This document shows positions 22,767 through 63,853 of a DNA stretch of 64,000 nt, piece by piece (within the stretch, counting starts at the first letter, position 1; each line of letters opens with the position of its first letter). The notes below the pieces were generated by a model. That model was not told where the DNA came from. It saw only the letters and a list, made by a program, of their open reading frames with translations, and made no database searches. Origin of the DNA: a virus; IMG/VR virus record IMGVR_UViG_3300021959_000011, positions 32,001-96,000 of that record; one strand, 5' to 3'. Both the position numbers and the translations under genes were made by a program.

Positions 22767-24272
22767 CTATGGATTTAAATCTATTTTGGGTGCTTTTATT
22801 GTAGTGTTACCCCCACTTTTAGTATCGATAGTACTTCCTGCACCTATTAATGCAGTACCACCAACAACAACTTGCCAATAACCATCCACTACAATATTTA
22901 AATTTCCCTTTACGTGTATATTTTTGTCACCATGTACAATATCGAAATTACTACCAATAGTTCTTTCTACAATATCGCCGTTTGGATGATATTCTTCAAA
23001 CGAACCACTTCTATGATATGTGTGCAATCTTTCTGCGCCGGGCGTATCATCCATTTCAATCAAATGTCCTGAACGAGAATATGTTGCAGTATTATATGGA
23101 TACTGTGGCGCAGCTGGTGATTCTGGTTCTCCAAATAAATCATTTGATGTAACTGGAGTTTTATTCTCTACTGGTTCTGTTGTATCTAATTCTTGTTGAG
23201 TTGAATGTTGTGGTAAATCCGACAACTGGGCCCTAGACTGTCCAGTAGAACCTGATGTGCCACTACGAGAACTACCAGATGATGCAGCTTGACTAGTTGT
23301 GGTTGTAGATGCACGATTTCTTTCACTTGCGGTTTCTCTCTGTACTAATTGATCCGTTGATGTTTCTGGAGATAATGCAGCTGGTGGTACATTACCATCT
23401 GTACCACCAGAATTAAACATTGCAACTTCTTGTTGTCTACGTCTTGCAAGGCCAGGCAATACTTTACCAGATGCTTTATTGTATTGCAACATTTTATTTG
23501 CAATAGTCGCATTGTCTCGCGTACCATTTGCAGTCAATGTATCTATACTGCCGGGCCCAAGGTTGTATGCAAAAGAAGTAAGTGCATCTACTTGTCTATC
23601 ATTCCAATCATATCCATATTTATTTTTTCTTGCGATAACTCCAGCACGAAATTTTGCAATATTTACTTCTAGTCTACGGGTTGCTTCGGCTTCATCGATA
23701 ACTTCGCCTTTGAAGTTTGCCTTAGTGCCATACCCAATAGATTCTTGTTTATGATCCCAGAATGACTTTGCAGAAAATCCTTCTTGTTGTTTCAAAAAGT
23801 CAGTTAACTCTGCACTTCCTGCATTAGATAGTTGTTCTGGTGTTGCGGTTGTATCACCTTGTGCATATCCCGCTGTACCTTCTGAAACAGAATCTGGGGA
23901 TGCTGCACCACTAAGTACTTTAAGTGCGCCAGGCACCTGTGAACCCCTTCCAGAACGGTTTCCGTCTGGTGAAACTTGTTTGCCTGGAACTGTACCCCAA
24001 ATAATTGGGTCTTGTGCATATTCTCCATCTCTAAAAAATCCTAAACACCAAGAACCTTCAATTACACCAGTTGGTGAAATTCCAATACCCCCAGCAGACG
24101 CACTATTCATTGGCATTATTGGACTTGCCCATGGTAATTCTTCTGTTTGCACGAATTCTTCGTGATATCCAATAATACGAATTCTCACACGGCCCAATTT
24201 TTCTGGGTCGTTAACGTCCTCCACAACGCCAGTCCACCACACAAAATTGTCTTTGCCAGCAAAATTTAACAT
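22767..24272 (-). CDS. gp5: Baseplate hub spike (OB fold, lysozyme domain, short beta-helix)
   Basis: WWTGVVEDVNDPEKLGRVRIR OB fold; EGF...WD...SIGYG and GLARRRQQE lysozyme motifs; SGHLIEMDDTPGAERL. Confidence 0.9.
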   Translation of the reverse strand: MLNFAGKDNFVWWTGVVEDVNDPEKLGRVRIRIIGYHEEFVQTEELPWASPIMPMNSASAGGIGISPTGVIEGSWCLGFFRDGEYAQDPIIWGTVPGKQVSPDGNRSGRGSQVPGALKVLSGAASPDSVSEGTAGYAQGDTTATPEQLSNAGSAELTDFLKQQEGFSAKSFWDHKQESIGYGTKANFKGEVIDEAEATRRLEVNIAKFRAGVIARKNKYGYDWNDRQVDALTSFAYNLGPGSIDTLTANGTRDNATIANKMLQYNKASGKVLPGLARRRQQEVAMFNSGGTDGNVPPAALSPETSTDQLVQRETASERNRASTTTTSQAASSGSSRSGTSGSTGQSRAQLSDLPQHSTQQELDTTEPVENKTPVTSNDLFGEPESPAAPQYPYNTATYSRSGHLIEMDDTPGAERLHTYHRSGSFEEYHPNGDIVERTIGSNFDIVHGDKNIHVKGNLNIVVDGYWQVVVGGTALIGAGSTIDTKSGGNTTIKAPKIDLNP

Positions 24273-24300: not shown

Positions 24301-25137
24301 TCATGGATTTTGATGTATAGTTGGTGCAAGTATAGTTACTGTACTACCACCTAATACTTCAAATGTTCCTGATATACTATATTCTATCTTATCCCCAACT
24401 TTAATATTGAGATTTCCCTCGACAATATAATTGCAATTACCACCTACATGCATATCATAATCTCCATGCACGACTTCAAAACTACTACCAACTGTTCTTT
24501 GTGTAACATCACCATTAGGTTGATACTCTTGTGACGAACCACTTCTATGGTAATTATGAATTCTTTCTGATCCTGCACTATCGTCAATTTCTTTGATGTG
24601 TCCAGACCTAGATGATTCAACCATATTTGATGGATATACTATTCCAATATCACTTTTTGGTTCATTACCTAGAGTACTATTCTTTTTTGTTTCGTGTATA
24701 GTTTCATCCAATTTATTAGTTGTTGCAAGTCTATTTAAATCAGATTCTTCAACAGTACTACCACCATAAAGAGAACCTTTTTCAGATGGATATATAGTGT
24801 CTGGGTCTTGAAATCCAACAGTTGCATCACTGTTAGACTTTTGTGGTTTGCCAGGCACAGTACCCCAAATCAAAGGTTCTTGAGCATATTCACCATCTCT
24901 GAAAAATCCTATAACCCATGAACCATTCGTAACACCAGTAGGAGATGTACCAATTCCATTCAAAGATGCACTGGTAACTGGCATAAGTGGACTTGCCCAC
25001 GGTAACTTGTCTGTAGGTAACAGTCCAGTATCTTCATTATGAATACCAAATATTCTAACCCTTACTCTACCAAGGCCTTCTGGGTCAAAAATATCTTCAA
25101 CCACACCTTGAAACCATACGAAATCATAAAGATTCAT
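24301..25137 (-). CDS. gp5: Second gp5 paralogue lacking the lysozyme domain
   Basis: WFQGVVEDIFDPEGLGRVRVR, GFFRDGEYAQEP, SGHIKEIDDSAGSERI; colinear with 22767-24272 apart from the enzyme insert. Confidence 0.85.
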   Translation of the reverse strand: MNLYDFVWFQGVVEDIFDPEGLGRVRVRIFGIHNEDTGLLPTDKLPWASPLMPVTSASLNGIGTSPTGVTNGSWVIGFFRDGEYAQEPLIWGTVPGKPQKSNSDATVGFQDPDTIYPSEKGSLYGGSTVEESDLNRLATTNKLDETIHETKKNSTLGNEPKSDIGIVYPSNMVESSRSGHIKEIDDSAGSERIHNYHRSGSSQEYQPNGDVTQRTVGSSFEVVHGDYDMHVGGNCNYIVEGNLNIKVGDKIEYSISGTFEVLGGSTVTILAPTIHQNP

Positions 25138-30996: not shown

Positions 30997-33539
30997 TGGC
31001 AACTTTAGATTCCGTAATAGAAAATATTAATAGTTTTAATAATACAGGACAACTATCACAGGCACTAGAAAGTGTCTCTGATAGTTTAGAAACTGGTACT
31101 GGTGTCACTGCACTTGGTGAAATTTCACAACTCATCAAAACACAAGGTGATATGTCTGTTAAGGAATTAAAACGTTCAAGAGAAGATTTAGCATCTCTTA
31201 AAGATAAAGTATTAACATCTGATAGAATTGCAGAAAAAGATAGAAGTAATATTCTAACTCTTATTCAAAATCAAGAAGATGTAATTAATCAAAATACTAC
31301 ATTATCAAAAAGAGCTGCAGAGTTTGTCCAAGAAAATATTAAAGAAAAAATACCAGACATTGCTGGTGTTGCAGCAGGGGTACTTTCGGAGAGTCCAGCG
31401 GCCGCTCTTGGTGTTAAGTTTATTGGTGATAAAATCCAAGAGAGTAGAGAAAGAAAAAGAAAAGAAAGAGAAGAAAGAGCTGCAAGATTGCAGAGAATTG
31501 CAGACGAAGAAGATAGGCATAATAGAGAATTAGAAGTACTACGTGGACAAATAACTAACGAAGAAACTCTTTCTAAAGTCAATATGACTCAACAGGAAGC
31601 TGCAGATATTGCAAAACAAAATGGGATGGATTATCAAGATTATATCAATGACTTAAAAAATCAATTGATTGAACAATCCAAACTACAGAAACAACAAAAA
31701 GATGTTCAAGAAGCAAAATTAAAAGAAACTGAAGAACTAAAAGATAAATTTGGTTTTGATCAAAGTGGGGCCCCAGTAACAGAAAGTCCTATTGGGCCTG
31801 GCAATCCATCTACCCCATCAGAACCACTAGAAACATTATCTGATGGTGGTGGCGAACCATACCTTGCAGAAATTAGAGACTTGTTAAAATTTATGTCAAG
31901 TCCAGATACAGTGACTCCATTTGACATAGAAAATAGTAGAGAAGAACGTAGATTTCAAAAAGATTTGGCCGCAAAAGAAGAGGCAGTAATTGAACAATTA
32001 GAAATCCAAACTGATTTATTAGAGAAAATTCATAAAGAACAAAATGATGACTTAAAAGAAAATATCATTGCAAACATGGCAGGCAGTATTGGTGGCAAAT
32101 TAAGTGGTTTTGCCTCTATGATTGGTGGTAGTGTTGCAGGCGCATTAGGACTTGGTGGTCTTGGCGGTGCGTTAGGACTTGGCGGAAAGAGTGCGAAGGC
32201 AGGCAAAACAGCAGGCAGGGCTGCAAAGGCAGGAAAACTTGGTAGACTTGCAAAGATAGGTAAGATTGCAAAAACTGGTGGTATTGCGGCACTAGGTGCA
32301 ACTGCAGCAAGTGCATTAGTTGGTGGTGCTACAAAACTAGGAAAAACTGTAGTTGGTGCTGGTAGTGCATTAATGGGGGGTGTTAAAAGAGTTGCTGGTT
32401 CTGTTGGAGAGATGGCAGGAAGGGCGACAACCAATCTTGGTGAATCTATAGGTAAGGTTGCATCATCTGCAACTGGTATTGCAAAAGCAACTCCAGAACC
32501 AAAAGCACTCACGAATGTAGCAGATGCAATTACTAAAACTGGGCCTGATATGATTGATGGTAAAATTGCATCCCCCAAAGTTACACCAACCCCCAAAGTT
32601 TCTACTCCACCAAAACTACCAAAGGCCGCCGGTGCGTTAGATACTGCGAAAGGTGCATTAAAAAATGTAACTGCACCAGTTGTTAAACTAAAGGATGGTG
32701 CGGCCAAATCAGTTGCTGGTGCATTAGATAAAACCATTGCAAAAAAGATTCTTGCATCAAAAGGTGCAAAGTTACTTGCAAAGGCAATCCCAGGCATAGG
32801 TATGGCCGCAGGAGGATTATTTGCACTCAACTCATTATTTAAAGGTGACTTTGTTGGTGCAGCTGCGGAAGCGGGAGGAATATTCCTTCCATCTGTTGCA
32901 GGGGCCCCATTAGATGCAGGGATTATGGCAAGAGAAACATATAATCAAATGTTTGGTACAGAAGATAATCCATTTCCACTCGAAGGAGATATGATTAAAC
33001 AACCTGATGTTGCAAAAAGTCGTATGGGTCAACTAAAGGATATGGCATTAGAGGTTATTGGAGTTGGACAGGAAGAACTAGATAAACAAGGAAAAATACA
33101 GGCATTGCAAAAAGAAATAACTGATGCCGAAGATAGAATTACAAGGTCTACTGGCGGAGAGAATGTATATTATGGTAGAGATTCCAAAGGAATTGAAAAA
33201 GACCAAGCTTCTATTGCTGCAAAACAGGCAGAAATTAATTCTTTATCAGTCTCATCTGGTGAAACATCAACATCCCCAGACTTGAGTGGTGGTTCTGCAA
33301 CTGAACAAATGAGTATGAATTCTGAAAGAGCCAATTTAAACCAAGAAATGAACAACATGATGCGACAAGAGGCGATAACTAGAAATACACCATCCAATAC
33401 TGGTGGAACCGCAAATGTTGTTAATGCGCCTCAACAAAATATCAATGCATCAAAGACAACAATTGTACAACAACCGCACGTTAGAAATCCAGACCCATCA
33501 ATTGGGTTTGCTCAACGTGGATTACAAGGAGCAGTATAA
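30996..33539 (+). CDS. Tape-measure-like / baseplate hub protein (gp29 position)
   Basis: Coiled-coil N half, G/A/K-rich middle, KAIPGIG motif, NVVNAPQQN tail; follows gp26/gp51. Confidence 0.65.
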   Translation: MATLDSVIENINSFNNTGQLSQALESVSDSLETGTGVTALGEISQLIKTQGDMSVKELKRSREDLASLKDKVLTSDRIAEKDRSNILTLIQNQEDVINQNTTLSKRAAEFVQENIKEKIPDIAGVAAGVLSESPAAALGVKFIGDKIQESRERKRKEREERAARLQRIADEEDRHNRELEVLRGQITNEETLSKVNMTQQEAADIAKQNGMDYQDYINDLKNQLIEQSKLQKQQKDVQEAKLKETEELKDKFGFDQSGAPVTESPIGPGNPSTPSEPLETLSDGGGEPYLAEIRDLLKFMSSPDTVTPFDIENSREERRFQKDLAAKEEAVIEQLEIQTDLLEKIHKEQNDDLKENIIANMAGSIGGKLSGFASMIGGSVAGALGLGGLGGALGLGGKSAKAGKTAGRAAKAGKLGRLAKIGKIAKTGGIAALGATAASALVGGATKLGKTVVGAGSALMGGVKRVAGSVGEMAGRATTNLGESIGKVASSATGIAKATPEPKALTNVADAITKTGPDMIDGKIASPKVTPTPKVSTPPKLPKAAGALDTAKGALKNVTAPVVKLKDGAAKSVAGALDKTIAKKILASKGAKLLAKAIPGIGMAAGGLFALNSLFKGDFVGAAAEAGGIFLPSVAGAPLDAGIMARETYNQMFGTEDNPFPLEGDMIKQPDVAKSRMGQLKDMALEVIGVGQEELDKQGKIQALQKEITDAEDRITRSTGGENVYYGRDSKGIEKDQASIAAKQAEINSLSVSSGETSTSPDLSGGSATEQMSMNSERANLNQEMNNMMRQEAITRNTPSNTGGTANVVNAPQQNINASKTTIVQQPHVRNPDPSIGFAQRGLQGAV

Positions 33540-42791: not shown

Positions 42792-43346
42792 CTACTCCAA
42801 GTCCGTATCCCAATAAACATAATCAATCCAAGTTAGGTGCAGTTTTTGGTATTTTTCCTTACTGATACCTCTCATCAAATGGGTGTTTGATGGCACTACT
42901 GGTTTATTTATAGGATACATTCCAATCTCTTTGGTGAGTCGATTTCCTTTCTTTGTATTGCACCGCCGACATGCAGTTACAATATTATGCCAAGATGTGT
43001 TACCACCACGACTTAATGGTAATACATGATCGAATGTCAAATCTTTTGTTGGAAATTTTGTATTGCAATACTGACATTTAAATCTATCTCTTGCAAAAAC
43101 ATTAAGCCTAGTAAATCTAGGTGTCCTATGAGTTTTTACGTATGATTTAAGTGATATTACTGATGGTACATACATCTTGAAAGACGCACTATGTACAACA
43201 TGTTCATCATATTCGTGTACAACATTAACTCTTTCAAGCAAGGTAGAAGTAACTGCTTCTTGCCATGTGCAAGTAGATAAGGGCATTGTTGCCAGTGGTC
43301 TATAATCCGCATTCAGAACTAAAGTCTGAACATTGTTTGGTATCAT
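42792..43346 (-). CDS. HNH endonuclease (McrA-like)
   Basis: LVLNADYRP, RDRFKCQYC, DHVLPLSRGG, WHNIVTACRRCNTKKG. Confidence 0.92.
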   Translation of the reverse strand: MIPNNVQTLVLNADYRPLATMPLSTCTWQEAVTSTLLERVNVVHEYDEHVVHSASFKMYVPSVISLKSYVKTHRTPRFTRLNVFARDRFKCQYCNTKFPTKDLTFDHVLPLSRGGNTSWHNIVTACRRCNTKKGNRLTKEIGMYPINKPVVPSNTHLMRGISKEKYQKLHLTWIDYVYWDTDLE

Positions 43347-43726: not shown

Positions 43727-45769
43727 CTATTTTGTTGTTGCTATAAAAACACCATTCCAATCTTCTGGTAAATCCTGAGTTTCCATGTATTCGCACCTTT
43801 CTTTCCACATCCTGTAATAACCTTCCATACGTCCATCAAAATGGTCAACCAAACCTTCACACAAATACCCAGCGCGTACAAATTCCTTATTACGATAGTG
43901 CTTTAACATTTCATCATGTATTCTACCACTAACTCTATAGTGATTTTTAATATTATCTAATGCGGTGTAAATACTTATACCTATAGTCTTTCCTTTGACT
44001 GCAAGATCATCTAACTTCAGATAAAAGAAATCATCTTTTGTTCTATTATAGGTTTCTTCTCCAATTAACAAAACCATACCATATTCTTTACACTTTGATT
44101 CTATTCTCGCAGCAGTTGATACAGAATCCCCCAATACGTCATACGAGTGTCTTGCAGTACTTCCCATTTCACCCAAATAACCAAGACCAGTATTAATACC
44201 AGCCCCCATACCAACTGGAGGCCTACCTTCACTAGTAATTTTTTCATTGAACTTTTCCACAGCATTTAACATATCAAATGCAGTTTGTACTGCAGTCTTG
44301 GCATGGTTTGGATCATCTATAGGGGCATTATGAACATGCATACTTGCATCACCAATATATTTGATAACCATACCTTCACTATCAAGAATTGGTTGTGTGA
44401 TTGCATCCATATAACCATTCATAATCTTAGTCAAACCTTTTACGTCATCACCAAAAGATTCTCCTAATGGTGTGAAACCACGCAAATCGGAAAAACAAAT
44501 ACTAATCTCTTTTTTCATACCATCTTTGATAAGTGAAGGATTTTCTTGTAACATGCGTACAACTGTGGGAGATGCATAACCGGCAAATTGTTTTTTGATT
44601 TCTTGTTTCTCTAAAAATTCACTGATAAACTTTACTGAGTATCTAAAAGTACCTAATAAAAGTAACAAGAATGATATCGTAAGTCCATCAATCAAAAATC
44701 CATATTGATTAAAAATGTATACTGTACTGTACATTATACCCACTAATGTAAACGTAAAGAAACATAATCCAATATAAGTCCAGTTTGATAACACAATTAA
44801 TAACAGTCCAATAACTATCAATGCAGTAATTTCGCCCCAGGCCTTTGCATCTGGGTGTCTTGAAATATTTGAGTCGTTGAATACTGTGCCCAACATGACT
44901 GCCTGCATTTCGTGCGGCCATATACCACCTTTTGCAGTAGAGATAGGTTGTGCAATCCCACCAGCACTAACACCAACAAAAACAACACCACCATTAAAAT
45001 TATCTGGTAAGTTTTCACTACTCACAGAAGTATATCCCTGAGACCAATCAATCCAGATTTCACCAAGGGCGTTTGTCTGAATAGAACCAAATTGTGGAAT
45101 TCTCAGTTTATCTACGCCGAGGGGGGATAGTTTAATTTGAAATGAAGGATCTCCAGCAATAACTCTTAAAGTCTCCATTGTTACATTTGGATATAAAACT
45201 CCACCACTTTCAAACACAAGGGGAGCTCTTCTTGTTACACCATCCAATTCTGGATAAGTGTCAGTTATCCCTGTACCAAGTGCAGTACCTTCAAGTAATT
45301 CAATATTAGTTGTGATGCCAGATATACTTGGAATGAGATGCATATACTGACTATTAATAATTCCAGCGCCAGGGTTATATGGTTCATTTTTGTTCTCCTC
45401 TGTACCTATCATTGTTAAAATGACAGGATACTCATTTAAAATATAAGATAATTCTTCATCTTCTCCAAATCTATCTTTTTCGCTCATAAGTACATTAAAT
45501 ACAACTAGTCCAGCACCTCTATCGTAAATATCTTGGATAATCTCCCCATAAATACTTCGAGGAAATGGCCATTGTCCATATTCATCAATAGTTGTTTCAT
45601 CTATATTGACTGTAAAAATATTATTTTGTTGTATTGGTTGACTTGTAATAAGAGTGTCAAAATATCTTAACCTAACACTCTCAACAAAATTTGGATTGAC
45701 ATGATAGATCCATGTCAGACATGCGAGTAGTAAAATACTCCATACAGGTGAAAGTAAAACTTTTTTCAT
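43727..45769 (-). CDS. CHASE2-domain class III adenylate/guanylate cyclase
   Basis: GQWPFPRS and DGVTRRAPL (CHASE2), three TM helices, FSDLRGFT, KYIGDA, GAGINTG, YDVLGDSVSTAARIES, VKGK. Confidence 0.93.
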   Translation of the reverse strand: MKKVLLSPVWSILLLACLTWIYHVNPNFVESVRLRYFDTLITSQPIQQNNIFTVNIDETTIDEYGQWPFPRSIYGEIIQDIYDRGAGLVVFNVLMSEKDRFGEDEELSYILNEYPVILTMIGTEENKNEPYNPGAGIINSQYMHLIPSISGITTNIELLEGTALGTGITDTYPELDGVTRRAPLVFESGGVLYPNVTMETLRVIAGDPSFQIKLSPLGVDKLRIPQFGSIQTNALGEIWIDWSQGYTSVSSENLPDNFNGGVVFVGVSAGGIAQPISTAKGGIWPHEMQAVMLGTVFNDSNISRHPDAKAWGEITALIVIGLLLIVLSNWTYIGLCFFTFTLVGIMYSTVYIFNQYGFLIDGLTISFLLLLLGTFRYSVKFISEFLEKQEIKKQFAGYASPTVVRMLQENPSLIKDGMKKEISICFSDLRGFTPLGESFGDDVKGLTKIMNGYMDAITQPILDSEGMVIKYIGDASMHVHNAPIDDPNHAKTAVQTAFDMLNAVEKFNEKITSEGRPPVGMGAGINTGLGYLGEMGSTARHSYDVLGDSVSTAARIESKCKEYGMVLLIGEETYNRTKDDFFYLKLDDLAVKGKTIGISIYTALDNIKNHYRVSGRIHDEMLKHYRNKEFVRAGYLCEGLVDHFDGRMEGYYRMWKERCEYMETQDLPEDWNGVFIATTK

Positions 45770-46041
45770 GACAACTTTTTCTTTATATACAATACTACCG
45801 CATAAACTGTTAAAAGATACACTGTTGCGATACTAACATCTACAATATGTTCTCTCATATTATATATAAATTCTATTCCTGCCTGAACATCTCCCTGACC
45901 ACCTACACCAACATTTTCTGTAATATTGATTGTTTTGCCTTCGAACCCGTCAAAGGCGCCATCCTCAATAATAATTTCACAATCGTCACATTCGCCGTCT
46001 TGCCAAGGTTCTACTGTTTGATTAATTTCAATGTCATTCAT
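45766..46041 (-). CDS. Small acidic protein with C-terminal TM helix
   Basis: 91 aa, CDDC motif, ATGA overlap with the cyclase. Confidence 0.65.
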   Translation of the reverse strand: MNDIEINQTVEPWQDGECDDCEIIIEDGAFDGFEGKTINITENVGVGGQGDVQAGIEFIYNMREHIVDVSIATVYLLTVYAVVLYIKKKLS

Positions 46042-46048
46042 TTTTTCC

Positions 46049-46747
46049 TCAATTCTGTGTCACATTTACTGTACACCCAGATGAATTAGTGCAATAATTT
46101 GTAATAGAGATTGATTTTGATGCTGGGTCTTGGTAACTTGATCCAAGTTGTTGTATATTTGCTGTCACGGGCCCGCCAGCATTTGTTACATTGATAGTTG
46201 CTGAGTTATTAAGTGAACGTTGGTAAAGAGTAACATCGTTGTCATCACCTGTCACATAGATACCACCATAGGCTACACCATAACTGTCGCTGTTATGTTT
46301 TACTGTATTACCATCACCAGTTATATAAGTCTCACTTTCTTTGTGTCCACCCCAACTACCACCACTACTATTATTGATTAACCGACTCATTACAGTATTT
46401 TCATCACCTGTTATTTCTACAATAGTTTCTCTGGTGTTGCCATTGTTTTGTCCGGCCGCATGACTAGTTCGAACTATGTTTTCATTTCCAATCATTGTCA
46501 CATCTACAACACTGTTATCACTTTTATAACCTCTACTCCACCCTACTGCATTACCATTTAAGTCAATACAATTACTGTCAGCATTAGGTGTGGCACAATA
46601 ACGAAATTCGTTATCCCGTCCATCTTGAACCACAGTAAGTTCAAGATTGTCGCCAACTTGATTGATATAAATTTCGTTACTATTGGACTTGGATGATATT
46701 AATAGTGTTATTACCAACACCAAGCCGATAGTTATATATTGCTTCAT
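46049..46747 (-). CDS. Curlin-like secreted beta-solenoid protein
   Basis: Signal peptide; NEIYINQVGDNLELTVVQDGRDN and repeated ITGDxN. Confidence 0.75.
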   Translation of the reverse strand: MKQYITIGLVLVITLLISSKSNSNEIYINQVGDNLELTVVQDGRDNEFRYCATPNADSNCIDLNGNAVGWSRGYKSDNSVVDVTMIGNENIVRTSHAAGQNNGNTRETIVEITGDENTVMSRLINNSSGGSWGGHKESETYITGDGNTVKHNSDSYGVAYGGIYVTGDDNDVTLYQRSLNNSATINVTNAGGPVTANIQQLGSSYQDPASKSISITNYCTNSSGCTVNVTQN

Positions 46748-47795
46748 CTTGTTGCTCCACGTTTATCGTATACCCATATTCTTGGTTTAATTCTAAATCA
46801 ATATAATGAGTAATGGATGCATCTTCTCTACTAAACTTCCAATTTGGTTCTTCAACTTCTAATGTTATTCTTGTGGCTGGATCGTATCCAAATACTTTAT
46901 CTGCAAAAAATTCTTCGTTCTGTTTTTGTAACTCATCTTTAAATAATTCCGCCAATGCTAGGTTCATCGTGTCTAACATATCATGCAACAATTCTTGTAA
47001 ATATAAGTCAGTATTATTTAGTTCAGTTACCCAGATGTTTTTGATATCGTCTAAAAGTACATCTTCATCCAACCCATCATATTCTAAAAAGTCAATATCT
47101 AAAAAATCATAAATTTTTCGCGCCTTGCGTACAATTTCTTCTTCCTCTTCTATATATGGAGATTTCTTTCTAAGAATTAAGAGATTTGTAATATCGGATT
47201 CTTCTAAAGGTAATATTAATGGTTTTAACGGTGGGGTCCAAGATTGTTTTACAATAGTTGTTTGATAAGATTGATTCATTATAACAATACCATTATCATT
47301 TTCTACAGTAATTTCACCAGTAACACAATATCCACTTATATCACAACTAGGCAGTAATGTAACCATTGTGCCACCAATTTCATCTACAACCATTACAAAA
47401 TCCGTGCCACGCACATTAATCTTTGCACTAGGAGTTCTTATGTTTACACGCTGTCTACTATTCTTTGCAATTTGACCACTTGCGTATCTAACTGTACCCA
47501 GAGTTGCCCTTAAACCCAATCTACCAGTACGAGTATTTGGATCATAAACAAAATCATCGATCAACAATCTTGCATGTTCTGTAATATCTACTCTAGTTTC
47601 ATCAACAAAATCGATTCTCATTCTACCCTTGGCAGTAACAGCAGTATCCATAGGCATAACACCTACGCCCCTGCCACCATCAATAACTTGATTATCTCTT
47701 TCTAACACTCCACTACCACTAAACTTACCTATTTCACCGGCACTACCAAACGCATAAGTTGGTATCAACAATAATAGACTTATTATCCTAAACAC
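46680..47795 (-). CDS. FecR-domain periplasmic protein
   Basis: Signal peptide; VTAKGRMRIDFVDET, IRTPSAKINVRGTDF, GEITVEN. Confidence 0.85.
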   Translation of the reverse strand: MFRIISLLLLIPTYAFGSAGEIGKFSGSGVLERDNQVIDGGRGVGVMPMDTAVTAKGRMRIDFVDETRVDITEHARLLIDDFVYDPNTRTGRLGLRATLGTVRYASGQIAKNSRQRVNIRTPSAKINVRGTDFVMVVDEIGGTMVTLLPSCDISGYCVTGEITVENDNGIVIMNQSYQTTIVKQSWTPPLKPLILPLEESDITNLLILRKKSPYIEEEEEIVRKARKIYDFLDIDFLEYDGLDEDVLLDDIKNIWVTELNNTDLYLQELLHDMLDTMNLALAELFKDELQKQNEEFFADKVFGYDPATRITLEVEEPNWKFSREDASITHYIDLELNQEYGYTINVEQQDEAIYNYRLGVGNNTINIIQVQ

Positions 47796-47796
47796 A

Positions 47797-48525
47797 TTAG
47801 TCTCTCTGGATAATATCTACTTCGGCATTATCACCCACAAATGTTGCATCAACTTTTGTATCATAAATTCCACTTTGGTTTATACTAAACCAACCGCCAC
47901 CACCAGTAATACTTAATGTAACACTATGTCCGGCACTATCACCGGCACCAGATTGGTCAATCTTTACATAATTGCCAGGAGCTTCAGTAGCTAATCCAGA
48001 ATGACCGTCAGAAACTGTACCACTTGCAAGTGAATTTTCATTGTTTATTGTCACAGTAATATCTGCGGCCTTACCATCCTGATCAACATCAATGACGTTT
48101 CCATCACCAGTAATGGTAAATACGGCAACTAGGTCTTCCGCATCGCCGGTTTCACCAATTCTGAACAGAAATTTGTTATCATCTCCAGTTGTCGCAATAT
48201 TCAATGTGACATCTTCACAATTTGTACCAGAAGTATCATCACACGTCAGATCCACAGTATTGTCATCACCAGTAAATACCCACGTACCAGTGTAACTATT
48301 ACCTTTTATCAGTGCATCAATTTCATTAAAATTACCTGTTTGAGTAATTGAGAATGTCATATCATCACCATCTAAAAGAACATCTGTTGTAGAGTCACCA
48401 AACTCATTGTCCTGACCATCTTGCGTAATAGCTAAATCTAAATTATCACCAGATTGTGTAATATAGATATCATTAGCAAATACTGGAAACGAAAAGAATA
48501 TCAATGGAATTATATATTTCCACAT
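47797..48525 (-). CDS. Curlin-like secreted beta-solenoid protein
   Basis: Signal peptide ending VFA; NDIYITQSGDNLDLAITQDGQDN and repeated TGDDN/TGDGN. Confidence 0.75.
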   Translation of the reverse strand: MWKYIIPLIFFSFPVFANDIYITQSGDNLDLAITQDGQDNEFGDSTTDVLLDGDDMTFSITQTGNFNEIDALIKGNSYTGTWVFTGDDNTVDLTCDDTSGTNCEDVTLNIATTGDDNKFLFRIGETGDAEDLVAVFTITGDGNVIDVDQDGKAADITVTINNENSLASGTVSDGHSGLATEAPGNYVKIDQSGAGDSAGHSVTLSITGGGGWFSINQSGIYDTKVDATFVGDNAEVDIIQRD

Positions 48526-48546
48526 ATCTTATTTCTCCTTAATAAA

Positions 48547-49347
48547 TTATTTGAATTTCCATAATTTTTTATCAACACCTTCATAAACCAATTCTATAAT
48601 TCCCTGCTCTATCGCAGCTCTTACTGCATAATTTACAGGTTCGTTTACTGAAAAACCAGATTCTGTTTCTACGAGTTTTGTACCTAAATCCAAAAACTTA
48701 AAAACATCTGCGCCGGTTCTATAACTTGCAATAGATTTTTCTGTTGCAATACTCATTAAGACCTTACCAGTGTTAACGCTAACTAATCTCATTACGACAG
48801 TAACTGTATCTATTCTATATTCTGTTTGTGCGCCGATGCCAAGATATCTTCCACCAACACCACCTACAGCCGTATTACTGTCATAACCAACTACACCACC
48901 TTCTAAAATCAAACCCGCAAAAATCATAGGTTTTAATTTTATGGGTCCGTTTGGTAAATCCTTTTCGTATACCTCTCTTGTATTTCTAATAAGTTGTCTT
49001 TCTTTAATAAGGTTGTCCATACCAACTCTTTCAACAACCTCAAACCATTCACCCTGTCCAACATCCTGTAGGGCCTTTATAACCCAAACCTCCGAACCTT
49101 GTGTTACGGCCGAACTTAGATTTGCAATACCATCTGATGGTTTTCTCTGTCCAGTTTTATCCAAAAACTGATAGACTGCAATAGTAATTTTATCACCATC
49201 TATTGGTGGTACTGCTGCCAATCGTTCTTTGATAGGACTCTCCTGTGATACTGGAGAATCGTCCAAACTATTCAGAACATCAAGAGATTGCATTACTGCA
49301 CATCCGCCTAAAAAATTCATAAAAAATATTATAAAAAATATTCTCAT
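48547..49347 (-). CDS. csgG: Curli secretion outer-membrane lipoprotein
   Basis: Lipobox LGGC; AVYQFLDKTGQRKP, SSAVTQG, WFEVVER, LIKERQLIR, EGGVVGYDSN, NEPV. Confidence 0.95.
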   Translation of the reverse strand: MRIFFIIFFMNFLGGCAVMQSLDVLNSLDDSPVSQESPIKERLAAVPPIDGDKITIAVYQFLDKTGQRKPSDGIANLSSAVTQGSEVWVIKALQDVGQGEWFEVVERVGMDNLIKERQLIRNTREVYEKDLPNGPIKLKPMIFAGLILEGGVVGYDSNTAVGGVGGRYLGIGAQTEYRIDTVTVVMRLVSVNTGKVLMSIATEKSIASYRTGADVFKFLDLGTKLVETESGFSVNEPVNYAVRAAIEQGIIELVYEGVDKKLWKFK

Positions 49348-49809
49348 TTAAAATCCAAATTCTCCACTGCCTGGCACAGTAATTTCTGTAACAGTACCAT
49401 CATCACCAACAATAGTTAGTGTGATTTCACCAGTAGTTTCATCTCTAATCCAACTAATAGTTGAACCTTCAATCGATGCTGTACCTGTATTTGAACAAGT
49501 ATCAGTACAATCTGCAAACATCGAATCTACCATCTGTTTAGAAAGTTGTGCGTAAATTCTAGATTCAATGTTACGAATAAATTTATTTAGAGTTGTATTA
49601 TTCAATTCTCTTTCTATTCGTGCGGCCTCAGATTCTGCATCTTTTCGAAGTTCTTCTTTTCTATTATGTTGCAACTGTTCAACACTCAGTACATGAGTAG
49701 AATATCCATTACCATAATGAAATGCAGGGTTCTTAAATCCCCATGTCATTTCAGAACCATATACTGGAAATGTTAATAATAATATCACTAATATAAAAAA
49801 GATTTTCAT
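49348..49809 (-). CDS. csgF: Curli assembly component
   Basis: Signal peptide then SEMTWGFKNPAF; FIRNIESRIYAQLS; C-terminal TEITVP; adjacent to csgG. Confidence 0.85.
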   Translation of the reverse strand: MKIFFILVILLLTFPVYGSEMTWGFKNPAFHYGNGYSTHVLSVEQLQHNRKEELRKDAESEAARIERELNNTTLNKFIRNIESRIYAQLSKQMVDSMFADCTDTCSNTGTASIEGSTISWIRDETTGEITLTIVGDDGTVTEITVPGSGEFGF

Positions 49810-49817
49810 AATTATTC

Positions 49818-50108
49818 CTACTTATCTTTATTCTTTAAAAACTCATCTATTTCTTCTTCAGTTGGTATTTTTTGTTCTTTAGATTGTAAAATCATATTTA
49901 ATTTTGTATTTAGTCTAATTAAATCATTATCCATCATTCTTATGCGATCAATTAATGCAATCAAAGTCATATGAGATTCTTCGATTACAGGGTCGACTTC
50001 CTTAGTAACCCAATTCCAAATATAAAATATGAAATATCCTAGTCCTACCGCAGCGATTATTGGAAATCCATACTGCGATACTAAATCACCTAAATTTTGA
50101 TCTGGCAT
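49818..50108 (-). CDS. Single-TM coiled-coil protein (YvrJ/holin-like), paralogue of 50480-50767
   Basis: DLVSQYGFPIIAA...LIDRIRMMDNDLIRL. Confidence 0.7.
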   Translation of the reverse strand: MPDQNLGDLVSQYGFPIIAAVGLGYFIFYIWNWVTKEVDPVIEESHMTLIALIDRIRMMDNDLIRLNTKLNMILQSKEQKIPTEEEIDEFLKNKDK

Positions 50109-50311
50109 TATTCTGACTCAGACAAATCTTCTGGATTACATCTCATCAACCAACCATGTTCATTTACAACAAACTTATCGCCGGGCTTATAAAGGTGATA
50201 CTCCTTTACAGAATTTCCATCCTTATCCATTCCCATCACTTCGCCTGGCCAATCACCTTTGACTGTAAAATTATTGCCGGCCTGCTCAATACTATATTCA
50301 ACCCATAACAT
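50108..50311 (-). CDS. Small beta-rich protein (MLWVEYSIEQ...)
   Basis: Start moved to 50311; similar to 50298-50477. Confidence 0.6.
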   Translation of the reverse strand: MLWVEYSIEQAGNNFTVKGDWPGEVMGMDKDGNSVKEYHLYKPGDKFVVNEHGWLMRCNPEDLSESE

Positions 50312-50477
50312 TTTCAGCACCAATTTTTTCAAAGTACCCATTTGGGCCAACTCTATAAACATCACCGATTTGTAATTCAACATCATCAATGATAAAAAAT
50401 TTATCATCTGGATTTTTATTTGTCAAAATGCGAAAACCATTTTGAAATTTCATTAGTAGTAAATCTTTCCACAACAT
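50298..50477 (-). CDS. 59-aa protein (MLWKDLLLMKFQNGFRI...IGDVYRVGPNGYFEKIG)
   Basis: Hand translated; AAGGA SD; fills the gap in the operon. Confidence 0.6.
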   Translation of the reverse strand: MLWKDLLLMKFQNGFRILTNKNPDDKFFIIDDVELQIGDVYRVGPNGYFEKIGAENVMG

Positions 50478-50479
50478 AT

Positions 50480-50767
50480 TTAGTCCTTTCTAGCATCTTT
50501 TTGTCCATCTGCCCTTGCAATTCTATTTAAATCTGCAGGGAGCATTGGAATATTAAATGAACGGCACATTAATATATCTATTCTCAAAAGTTCATTATTC
50601 ATCGTTTTCACTCTATTATCAAGAGACTTTACGAATCCTCTTTGGGTACGGATATCATCTAAGACTCCGGCCAATATGAATTTCAATGTTAGGAACACAA
50701 AAAATCCACCCGCCAAAGCGGATGCAATTGGAAACCCCACATCACTGACCAAATCTAAAATATCCAT
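50480..50767 (-). CDS. Single-TM coiled-coil protein (YvrJ/holin-like)
   Basis: DLVSDVGFPIASA...LDNRVKTMNNELLRI. Confidence 0.7.
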   Translation of the reverse strand: MDILDLVSDVGFPIASALAGGFFVFLTLKFILAGVLDDIRTQRGFVKSLDNRVKTMNNELLRIDILMCRSFNIPMLPADLNRIARADGQKDARKD

Positions 50768-50786
50768 AATAGTTTATCCTCAAAAC

Positions 50787-50794
50787 TATTTATA
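50787..50794 (-). promoter_or_regulatory. T4-type late promoter heading the csg/FecR/cyclase operon
   Basis: Exact TATAAATA about 20 nt upstream of the ATG at 50767. Confidence 0.75.
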
Positions 50795-50815: not shown

Positions 50816-51292
50816 TTATCCTTGGGCCGACATGATAAGAAACACAATTAATGCCAATATTCCTGATAGACAAAGTATTAAAAATATAATTAATAGAAAT
50901 TCAAAAAACTTTTTACGTCTTTCCATTTGTTTATAAATGGTTTCTTCTCTTTCTTTTCGAATATTTCTACGCAACTCTACCATTTCTTTCCACGTACCAT
51001 AACCAAAACGGTTATTCAGTAGTGCCTGTAGGTCTGCCTCTTGTTCTGCGAGTTTCTTTTTATGAATAATTATCTGGAGGGCCTCTTCTTCGACAGAACC
51101 AGAAGAAAAAAGTTTAGTAAATAGTGGGGGATTTTTTCTTTGACTCTCTGCTCGAGTCAAATCTGCTGCAGCACCATACCAACGACCAAGATGACCGGCG
51201 ACTTCTTCCAAGTCTCTTCCGGCCGATACTAATTTACGTATACCATTGTATGCTGTAGTTGCAGCAGTTATTGCTGTTATGGGGTCAATCAT
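50816..51292 (-). CDS. Conserved phage protein with C-terminal TM anchor
   Basis: MIDPITAITAAT start, hydrophobic tail; TATAAATA at 51381-51388. Confidence 0.7.
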   Translation of the reverse strand: MIDPITAITAATTAYNGIRKLVSAGRDLEEVAGHLGRWYGAAADLTRAESQRKNPPLFTKLFSSGSVEEEALQIIIHKKKLAEQEADLQALLNNRFGYGTWKEMVELRRNIRKEREETIYKQMERRKKFFEFLLIIFLILCLSGILALIVFLIMSAQG

Positions 51293-51393
51293 TATTATAC
51301 CTTTTACTTTACACCGTAAATATAAGAAATTTACGTTACATAGTAAATAATGATCTAAGGTTTCAATTCACATTACAAAGTATTTATAATATT

Positions 51394-51868: not shown

Positions 51869-51945
51869 TGGTCGGAGTTAGAGGATTCGAACCTCTGACC
51901 CTCTGCTCCCAAAGCAGATGCGCTACCAGACTGCGCCAAACTCCG
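51869..51945 (-). tRNA. trnP: tRNA-Pro(TGG)
   Basis: Cloverleaf; anticodon arm TCTGC-TTTGGGA-GCAGA, GGTTCGAATCC T arm, encoded CCA. Confidence 0.95.
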
Positions 51946-53209: not shown

Positions 53210-53296
53210 TGGTGCCCGCAGCTGGACTTGAACCAGCACAGCGATATCGCCGACAGATTTTAAGTCTGTTGTGTCTACCTATTCCACCATGCGGGC
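53210..53296 (-). tRNA. trnL: tRNA-Leu(TAA)
   Basis: 87 nt with long variable arm; ACAGA-CTTAAAA-TCTGT anticodon arm; encoded CCA. Confidence 0.95.
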
Positions 53297-55275: not shown

Positions 55276-55629
55276 TTAGAATGAGAACGATGCACCAATA
55301 CTAATATCACCAACACCCCAATCTTTATCTGTGGTAGTTTTTCCATATACTTCCATGCCGGATACACTGGCAATTGGTGCAGTAATTTCATATTGCATAG
55401 ATGTAAATTCAATATCTTCTAAATCGATAACATTTGGTCCGACTTCGAATGATGCAACACCTAAATCCCATGTGAAATCTGCTTCATATGTGATGGCATT
55501 GGTTTCTGTTTCTAAGTTTCTTTCTGCGGTAAATTCATTATTAAATGACATTCCATTTCCAAGATCAATCGCAGATGCTGTGCCTGCTGTGGCCAAGATT
55601 AAAGCTGCAGCTGTTAATACGTTTTTCAT
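55276..55629 (-). CDS. Small outer-membrane beta-barrel-like protein
   Basis: Signal peptide (TASA), alternating beta strands, C-terminal GASFSF beta-signal. Confidence 0.65.
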   Translation of the reverse strand: MKNVLTAAALILATAGTASAIDLGNGMSFNNEFTAERNLETETNAITYEADFTWDLGVASFEVGPNVIDLEDIEFTSMQYEITAPIASVSGMEVYGKTTTDKDWGVGDISIGASFSF

Positions 55630-55654
55630 TATAGTTCTTTCTAATTAGAGTTAA

Positions 55655-55978
55655 AGTACGACTACTTCTGTTGCCAAGTGAGCCGCCAACTCCGTTAGAA
55701 TCAAGCTGCGATAGCCATCTCTACAGGTGCAAAATTATCGTTTGCATTTATTATTGTTGACCGAATAACGTAGGTCATCACGGCAATCTACTCTCATCTC
55801 TACACACCTGTCGATCCTAGTTCGCCCCCATCATAAATGCACTAACTTCGACCGCCACTTACGGGCCATCTATGTTCTGCAAAACTTCCTGTTGCAGCAG
55901 GACATAGTGCATTTATGGTGGAGGCGTTGGGTACTGCCCCCAAGTCCAGTATGTATGTTGAATCGTATCAACGACTAC
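55655..55978 (-). ncRNA. ssrA: Permuted two-piece tmRNA; tag ANDNFAPVEMAIAA* at 55745-55701
   Basis: Acceptor piece ...CGCCTCCACCA (ends 55916) precedes GGGGGCGAACTAGGATCGAC (starts 55829); G3-U70 pair; promoter TTGACA-17-TATAAA at 55986-56014; outer ends approximate. Confidence 0.93.
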
Positions 55979-56047
55979 AAATATATTTATACACTATACT
56001 CTGTAAAATGTCAATACATTTCTATATGAAATATAGTGTGTTGTATT

Positions 56048-63776: not shown

Positions 63777-63853
63777 TGGCGACCTCTATAGGACTCGAAC
63801 CTATAACCTACGGCTTAGAAGGCCGTTGCTCTATCCAGTTGAGCTAAGAGGCC
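63777..63853 (-). tRNA. trnR: tRNA-Arg(TCT)
   Basis: ACGGC-CTTCTAA-GCCGT anticodon arm, GGTTCGAGTCC T arm, encoded CCA. Confidence 0.95.

Follow-up and report, generated by a model that had tools for sequence, protein, structure and literature searches.

The closest described relative of the gene cluster discussed here is the curli module of pelagiphages, which Wittmers et al. 2022 (mSystems; PMC9599517) found whole in podo- and myo-pelagiphages. Its published order is one or two 'histidine kinase' (HK) genes, CsgF, CsgG, a CsgA/B protein, FecR, a second CsgA/B protein and an adenylate cyclase (AC), the last two being frequent in myoviruses. According to the same study CsgE is lacking, FecR, HK and AC are foreign to bacterial curli operons, the module genes occur at nearly equal frequencies at 65 ocean stations (GOV2) and are detected in metatranscriptomes, and the module is of alphaproteobacterial origin with transfer between phage families. 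FecR is read there as an iron regulator; CHASE2, promoters and membrane topology go unmentioned. Two other papers described csgF and csgG only and stated that csgA/B was missing (PMC7029224, PMC9004378). We analyzed a related cluster in a window of 64,000 nucleotides (nt), positions 32,001 to 96,000 of IMG/VR virus record IMGVR_UViG_3300021959_000011. The record measures 140,926 bp and is 70% complete by the CheckV estimate, which bounds all record-wide searches below. The module is not new, and the window holds a further member of the published pelagiphage curli module. An earlier note on this DNA held that only csgF/csgG were known from marine myophages; this is outdated, since both curlins, FecR and the cyclase were published in 2022 (PMC9599517). 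New here are the late promoter, the CHASE2 sensor identity of the cyclase, the pairing of FecR with CHASE2 in bacteria, the non-kinase nature of the 'HK' genes and an Asn to Ser exchange in the cyclase active site.

A second group of related systems is bacterial. In Burkholderia and Pseudomonas a LysM-FecR protein is encoded beside a CHASE2 kinase, with a response regulator in the operon (PMC5192318). The best studied CHASE2 cyclases, CyaD1, CyaD2 and CyaK of Sinorhizobium meliloti, sense an extracellular protein via the outer-membrane barrel NsrA (PMC13001267). The cyaD1 gene adjoins the FecR-domain gene smc02177, for which no role in signal perception was found (PMC5498481).

On balance we favor reading the window's cluster as a curli-type channel that would be produced late in infection, together with exported solenoid proteins and an attached sensor pair of FecR and a CHASE2 cyclase. 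The phage belongs to the T4-like pelagimyophage/Melnitz group and has virion genes for T4-type baseplate, tail and head-completion proteins. Nucleotide-level matches to the window among 50,697 phage records were confined to four Melnitz genomes and lay inside the cyclase gene. The gene set and its order recur in HTVC008M (gp011-gp019) and Melnitz (gp97-gp104), with annotations as CsgF, CsgG, curlin-associated protein and adenylate/guanylate cyclase, and in Melnitz also FecR.

The minus strand of the window carries eleven co-oriented open reading frames (ORFs) between 43727 and 50767, with junctions ranging from a 68-nt overlap to a 21-nt gap; all window features named below are on this strand. 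The cluster starts with TMcc1 (50480-50767), a protein of 95 amino acids (aa) with an N-terminal transmembrane (TM) helix and a coiled coil. Two small proteins of 59 aa (50298-50477, without signal peptide) and 67 aa (50108-50311) follow, and then TMcc2 (49818-50108), a 96-aa paralogue of TMcc1. The junctions from TMcc1 to csgF are a 2-nt gap, a 14-nt overlap, a 1-nt overlap and an 8-nt gap. CsgF (49348-49809) directly abuts CsgG (48547-49347), and gaps of 21 nt and 1 nt separate CsgG from solenoid 1 (47797-48525) and solenoid 1 from the FecR gene (46680-47795, GTG start). FecR overlaps solenoid 2 (46049-46747) by 68 nt; a 7-nt gap leads to a 91-aa ORF with a C-terminal TM helix (45766-46041), which overlaps the cyclase gene (43727-45769) by 4 nt. 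Coordinates thus bear out the earlier description of eleven co-oriented genes with gaps of 21 nt or less, or overlaps, behind one exact TATAAATA site, and Pfam and PHROGs matched the domain names given to CsgF, CsgG, the two curlin-like proteins, FecR and the CHASE2 cyclase. Signal peptides and the CsgG lipobox LGGC were assigned by eye; alignments back the signal peptides, as the hydrophobic leaders vary and the mature N-termini are conserved.

The conservation of this arrangement was examined by a CsgG scan of IMG/VR, which gave 80 loci that were searched by tblastn with all eleven window proteins. At 90% CsgG identity the loci form 39 clusters, of which 25 have enough flanking sequence to be assessed. 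FecR, a curlin and the TMcc pair were present in 25/25 of these and the cyclase in 24/25. Co-occurrence of FecR and cyclase genes with phage csgG, on which the idea of a single system in the earlier note depended, is therefore the rule. The order csgF-csgG-curlin-FecR-curlin-(variable slot)-cyclase and the strand are constant across loci. The TMcc pair is never lost: it lies directly upstream of csgF or, relocated, downstream of the cyclase, mostly on the opposite strand but in a few loci (L040, L041, L055) on the same one. Contigs with the phage cluster also turned up in metagenome-assembled genomes (MAGs) named Rhodobacteraceae, Pirellulales, Flavobacteriaceae, Luteolibacter and Rickettsiales (L083-L087, L092). 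These were rejected as bacterial donors, being short contigs in unrelated bins that carry the phage-only TMcc genes, and they are probably mis-binned phage DNA. Jumbo phages of Brevundimonas also have CsgG-like genes (28% identity); their neighborhood is unrelated and contains no large cyclase gene, and they were set aside as a separate acquisition.

The FecR-CHASE2 pairing was found independently in bacteria. Scanning 185,579 species genomes with a FecR alignment gave 79 loci, 73 of which were left after six mis-binned phage loci had been set aside. A CHASE2 gene occurs within 10 kb in 25/73 bacterial FecR loci, and in 16 of those it encodes a full CHASE2-cyclase. The loci with CHASE2-cyclases span at least seven phyla, and the FecR-CHASE2 taxa are Alpha- and Deltaproteobacteria, Myxococcota, Planctomycetes, Spirochaetes, Elusimicrobia and Omnitrophota. 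No CsgG was found at the bacterial FecR-CHASE2 loci, and the seven closest alphaproteobacterial csgF-csgG loci (41-49% identity; 401 genomes sampled) have no FecR, CHASE2 or cyclase gene within 10 kb. Since in bacteria the pair occurs without CsgG and csgFG without the pair, the phage module unites what bacteria keep as two separate units; by its predicted gene content it is a minimal curli set plus a FecR/CHASE2 sensor pair. The functional FecR-CHASE2 link postulated earlier thus gains support from outside the phages. Among Pelagibacteraceae single-cell genomes, CHASE2 was near FecR in 8/12 loci fetched, and the phage FecR could in principle address SAR11's own CHASE2 sensor. One SAR11 row (L157:6479-11452), located after ftsW/rodA, consists of a CHASE2-SpoIIE(PP2C) phosphatase, a 455-aa protein, a 191-aa FecR and a 345-aa protein; the 455-aa protein has a weak match to the outer-membrane-barrel family DUF2860 (E 2e-4, below cut-off).

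Expression of the cluster as one unit is suggested by its promoter motif. An exact T4-type late promoter motif TATAAATA (50787-50794) stands at the head of the cluster, 19 nt ahead of the first ATG and with a GAGGA Shine-Dalgarno sequence in between. By number alone TATAAATA is not enriched in the window (15 sites vs 10.6 expected). By placement, 11/15 sites are intergenic, intergenic sequence making up 7.4% of the window, and these sites precede genes for baseplate wedge, hub/tail lysozyme, tube cap, a gp2-like DNA end protector, a virion protein and two tail-fiber-like proteins. Of 65 related loci, 42 have the motif NATAAATA in the 100 nt that precede TMcc1, the first cluster gene, compared with 1.5% of random 100-nt windows. 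It precedes csgF in 13/26 loci where csgF heads the cluster and in 0/40 where csgF is not first. The corresponding counts for csgG and FecR are 0/53 and 0/58, and 5/44 cyclase genes have a NATAAATA of their own. Neither an intergenic terminator nor a convincing sigma-70 promoter was found inside the cluster. As the motif tracks whichever gene heads the cluster and is placed between genes, there is good support at the sequence level for one late transcription unit, and the late-promoter reading of the earlier note is well supported by the intergenic placement, the virion-gene neighbors and the head-of-cluster position in relatives.

The curli components are of unequal clarity. CsgG, a lipoprotein of the type VIII outer-membrane channel family, matched Pfam at 2.4e-47 (161 bits vs a 20.8 cut-off) and aligned over its full length to E. 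coli CsgG structures (E 6e-49). In the constriction loop Asn55 of the E. coli protein is kept, Phe56 is replaced by Leu and Tyr51 by Ser or Asp. CsgF, which has a signal peptide, matched Pfam CsgF at 1.1e-12 (48.7 bits vs 25.8) and phrog_35372 at 4.8e-52; its single phmmer match in the PDB, to a designed repeat, was discarded as spurious. CsgE (PF10627) gave no match in the 140.9-kb record under conditions that detected the E. coli control, in line with the earlier remark that no csgE is visible.

Both solenoids have signal peptides. Solenoid 1, a candidate fiber subunit, matched Curlin_rpt at 6.2e-10 (39.3 bits vs a 20.7 cut-off). Solenoid 2 is just below this cut-off (7.4e-4, 19.9 bits; 20.8 bits summed in the genome search), and its N-terminal motif NEIYINQVGDN equals that of solenoid 1. 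The AlphaFold2 model of solenoid 1 is an all-beta solenoid (predicted TM-score, pTM, 0.79) that aligns to CsgA structures 8c50 (Z 14.7) and 8enq (Z 11.7, 26% identity). Foldseek found no match for this model in the PDB at E<=0.001, and a wider structure search identified it as a beta-helix without singling out CsgA. We regard both proteins as predicted secreted curlin-repeat subunits with putative amyloid status. The FecR/solenoid 2 overlap (46680-46747) codes in one frame for the conserved C-terminus of FecR and in a second for the curlin signal peptide, and the closest relatives have a similar overlap of about 65 nt.

The FecR protein matched its Pfam family at 6e-8 (33.5 bits vs a cut-off of 24). 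Its model (mean predicted local distance difference test score, pLDDT, 73) has a confident FecR fold at residues 20-182, a low-confidence, acidic, helical linker at about 200-300 and a confident seven-strand C-terminal domain at 301-369. The N-domain resembles the PupR cell-surface signaling domain 6ovk (Z 15.3, root-mean-square deviation (rmsd) 2.8, 137 residues), and its first half resembles the 76-residue 'cell surface anchoring domain' of adhesin 5ix9 (Z 9.7, rmsd 2.2, 73 residues, 26% identity). Both are known periplasmic docking modules, as is the FecR fold. The C-terminus carries a G-x-G-x-N-x-I-x-I-x-Q motif that is kept in all 29 homologues, with Gln369 invariant, and that resembles the last rung of solenoid 1; a curlin nature of this segment is a motif-level lead. 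The FecR fold is preceded by a signal peptide alone, with neither a cytoplasmic anti-sigma domain nor a TM anchor. Searches of the record for Sigma70_r2, the mark of extracytoplasmic function (ECF) sigma factors, and for an STN domain found neither, so the statement in the earlier note that no sigma-factor partner is visible stands. Complex prediction for the CHASE2 periplasmic domain (residues 25-310) with FecR (18-200) scored 0.28, 0.39 and 0.00 in separate runs against a mark of 0.32, and counts neither way. A FecR protein of 'Hellea sp.' is 65% identical to that of the window.

The last gene encodes a CHASE2 sensor fused to a class III nucleotide cyclase. Pfam placed CHASE2 at residues 22-325 (1.2e-29, 104 bits) and matched Guanylate_cyc at 3.4e-17. 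Hydrophobic stretches read from the sequence flank the CHASE2 domain on both sides, which gives the TM-CHASE2-TM-cytoplasmic output layout. The CHASE2 domain is retained among the relatives, with a mean column identity of 61% in the alignment. Alignment to CyaB (3r5g) and Cya2 (2w01) located the catalytic residues D428, K470, D474, D544, S551 and R555. The metal-binding Asp residues D428 and D474, the adenine-specifying K470 and D544, and R555 are kept; the transition-state Asn is replaced by Ser551. The window's cyclase clade (33 phage loci, down to 46% identity) always has Asp544/Ser551, and four phage-like MAG contigs share the Ser. In the second phage clade and all 19 readable bacterial relatives, the residue equivalent to 544 is Ser or Thr and that equivalent to 551 is Asn. 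The window's clade has a conserved, derived active site of putative catalytic function.

The genes published as 'HK' are a different matter. No HisKA, HATPase_c or HAMP domain was detected at E<=1 in the 95-96-aa genes before csgF, and TMcc1 matched no Pfam family at that threshold. With no kinase domain in these genes the label fails; the genes themselves are conserved, and they are small membrane proteins with predicted TM and coiled-coil segments. TMcc1 and TMcc2 both matched phrog_18771 (8.9e-24 and 6e-31) and are paralogous to each other (E 2e-12). Among the 50,697 phage records the family occurs in HTVC008M and Melnitz only, both carriers of the cluster. TMcc2 also has a weak holin PHROG match (E 0.0077), and its Atlas neighbors are all viral, one cluster being auto-named holin; we take this label as a lead only.

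The two ORFs between the paralogues are less widespread or less clearly delimited. The 59-aa protein is conserved (67-89%) in the closest relatives only and had no family match in PHROG or Pfam searches. The second ORF was listed as 50108-50407; only its residues 33-94 are conserved, and tblastn coverage begins at residue 31-33 in all relatives. Its real start is therefore probably Met33 at 50311, giving the 67-aa product. Paralogy between the 59- and 67-aa proteins was not supported (E 0.056). The 91-aa ORF, counted in the earlier note as a small TM protein of the module, gave no tblastn match in any of the 80 related loci and is better described as filler of a variable slot. In the closest relatives this slot is empty and the cyclase directly follows solenoid 2; in other loci it holds up to about 3.6 kb of other genes. 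Several relatives (among them L015:13865-15652, L035:13792-15291 and L046:14251-16251, all on the plus strand) have there a signal-peptide protein of 500-666 aa whose last residues, K-F/W-K-F, are typical of outer-membrane barrels. A protein of about 114 aa (weak OMP_b-brl match, E 0.003) and a secreted Cys-containing protein of about 135 aa were also seen. The slot before the cyclase collects envelope proteins.

Taken together, a curli-type channel with an attached sensor would operate as follows. The host has no curli genes; late in infection it would be fitted with a CsgG/CsgF channel, through which both solenoids would be exported as fiber subunits. FecR and the CHASE2 cyclase would form a periplasmic sensor pair of bacterial type that was added to the curli genes. 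FecR may dock on the periplasmic side of the channel, at the place of the missing CsgE, and/or on the curlin subunits, and may inform the CHASE2 domain of the state of export or of the envelope; this domain would then alter cytoplasmic cyclic-nucleotide synthesis. Candidate pay-offs are aggregation, exclusion of competing phages and timing of release. The surface-to-cytoplasm circuit of the earlier note is thus plausible but unproven: a conserved unit was found, a FecR-CHASE2 link has support from bacteria, and the tuning of lysis or aggregation of hosts is still conjecture.

Several observations weigh against this reading. Neither the record nor two SAR11 genomes yielded a domain binding cyclic nucleotide monophosphates, so that the cyclic-nucleotide output of the proposed circuit has no receiver in these sequences; the same SAR11 genomes also lack a class III cyclase and CsgG. 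The conservation of Ser551 in the window's clade means that activity or product may differ. A group of seven loci (L056) retains FecR and a curlin with no cyclase within 10 kb, which implies that FecR does not strictly need the phage cyclase, and the cyclase is less frequent in podoviruses (PMC9599517). Generic beta-helices score as high as or above CsgA for the solenoid 1 model. The curlin likeness of the FecR C-terminus is weak: hhalign gave an end-to-end register match to the solenoid 1 alignment at P 0.015, and Pfam Curlin_rpt was found in 0/29 FecR homologues. Late timing is deduced from the promoter motif, and the Melnitz authors saw no clumping in infected cultures (PMC9004378).

A more specific form of the proposal has FecR replacing CsgE under CsgG and/or capping the curlins via its C-terminal beta domain, so that fiber-export or surface state would be signaled to the CHASE2 cyclase and passed on via an unrecognized kind of receiver. 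We consider it rather unlikely in this full form. If true, this scheme would also account for the numerous orphan FecR-CHASE2 pairs of bacteria, those of SAR11 included.

Somewhat further down in probability is a lysis-timing device, as proposed for Melnitz (PMC9004378), in which CsgG/CsgF form a gated pore, the TMcc pair acts like holin and antiholin and the cyclase sets the time of release. The late promoter, the lack of a CsgE gate and the altered aromatic constriction residues of CsgG would suit such a device, as would small single-pass, phage-only TMcc proteins with their holin PHROG and Atlas labels. However, a pure pore would not need the two curlin-repeat substrates with signal peptides that all 25 clusters retain, the holin evidence reaches no threshold, the cluster contains neither endolysin nor spanin, and the absence of csgA/B assumed in the Melnitz paper is incorrect.

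An equally doubtful alternative separates the cyclase from the curli genes, making it a merely co-located enzyme, for example one for host reprogramming or anti-defense that would flood the cell with a nucleotide or use one up, and leaving FecR to serve the curli apparatus alone. It would account for the clade that keeps FecR without the cyclase, for the position of the cyclase after the variable slot, for its own NATAAATA in a few loci, and for the altered active site and missing receiver. Yet 24/25 clusters keep the cyclase at the same place and on the same strand, its CHASE2 periplasmic domain has been kept under selection (61% mean column identity), and relatives of the window's FecR adjoin CHASE2 genes across many phyla of bacteria. 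Small solutes could pass through an ungated CsgG, and the Pfam family bears the name FecR. Even so, iron or cofactor uptake with FecR as an iron-citrate-type regulator and CsgG as import channel (an option in PMC9599517) is very improbable, since FecR has a cleavable signal peptide with no anti-sigma domain or TM anchor, the record has no Sigma70_r2 or STN, and the bacterial relatives pair with CHASE2 sensors.

If the curli-type channel with its attached sensor pair is what the cluster encodes, the module provides its host with a surface apparatus of a kind that the host does not have. Pelagiphages infect the sea's most abundant bacteria, and the module takes up a visible share of their genomes. 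Re-reading it as a FecR-CHASE2 pair with non-kinase membrane proteins behind a late promoter turns an annotation puzzle into a testable pairing, and any model must account for the cyclic-nucleotide receiver and the Asn-to-Ser site. A system in which the periplasmic partners are encoded side by side could help in the search for CHASE2 ligands in general.

The surroundings of the cluster are unlike those in Melnitz and HTVC008M, where tail tape measure or baseplate genes come next. Upstream it adjoins a gene for a 158-aa protein with a C-terminal TM helix (50816-51292; phrog_32327, 7.8e-10) that has its own TATAAATA at 51381-51388. Homologues of this protein lie inside the cluster in two related loci (L025, L027) and beside the TMcc pair in L092, and it is possibly a twelfth member. 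Further upstream, amid many very small ORFs, are tRNA genes for Pro-TGG (51869-51945), Leu-TAA (53210-53296) and Arg-TCT (63777-63853). A two-piece (permuted) tmRNA of alphaproteobacterial type (55610-56018; Rfam alpha_tmRNA, 137 bits) encodes the tag peptide ANDNFAPVEMAIAA, has a TATAAATA near its 5' end (55984-55991) and is comparable to the one reported for Melnitz. About 380 nt downstream of the cyclase lies an HNH endonuclease gene (42792-43346; phrog_16726, 1.3e-34), followed by an esterase/lipase-like gene and phoH. Matches to phrog_430, the gp5-type baseplate hub/tail lysozyme family, came from two neighboring genes, 22767-24272 (7e-83) and 24301-25137 (2e-76), which represent either a split or a duplicated gene.

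Compared with described systems, the window shares with the E. coli csgBAC/csgDEFG operons the CsgG channel, CsgF and two secreted curlin-repeat proteins that may be compared to CsgA/CsgB. Unlike E. coli it lacks CsgE, CsgC and CsgD, has changed constriction residues and is phage-encoded with predicted late expression, and its solenoids are about 240 aa long with degenerate repeats. With FecI-FecR-FecA and PupR it has the FecR fold in common but not the anti-sigma domain, membrane anchor, ECF sigma factor or STN transducer, and the FecI-FecR-FecA paradigm does not fit the phage FecR. The Burkholderia 'BiofilmReg' operon and P. aeruginosa PA4035/PA4036 have, as the window does, a secreted FecR-domain protein (COG4254) encoded directly before a CHASE2 sensor (PMC5192318); they differ in their histidine kinase and response regulator output, in LysM on FecR and in having no curli genes. 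Closer in output is the CyaD1/CyaD2/CyaK-NsrA-Clr system of S. meliloti, with CHASE2 and class III cyclase domains, a neighboring secreted FecR-domain protein and uptake of the signal at the outer membrane via a barrel. There the outer-membrane partner is NsrA rather than CsgG, the receiver Clr is known, and the bacterial relatives keep the catalytic Asn. The best match is the pelagiphage type VIII secretion module, which the window resembles in gene order, absence of CsgE and a host lineage without curli genes: csgF-csgG-curlin-FecR lie on one strand with the second curlin and the cyclase downstream of FecR, and the window departs from this plan in the 59- and 67-aa ORFs that separate TMcc1 from TMcc2 and in a 91-aa ORF, unique to it, in front of the cyclase gene.

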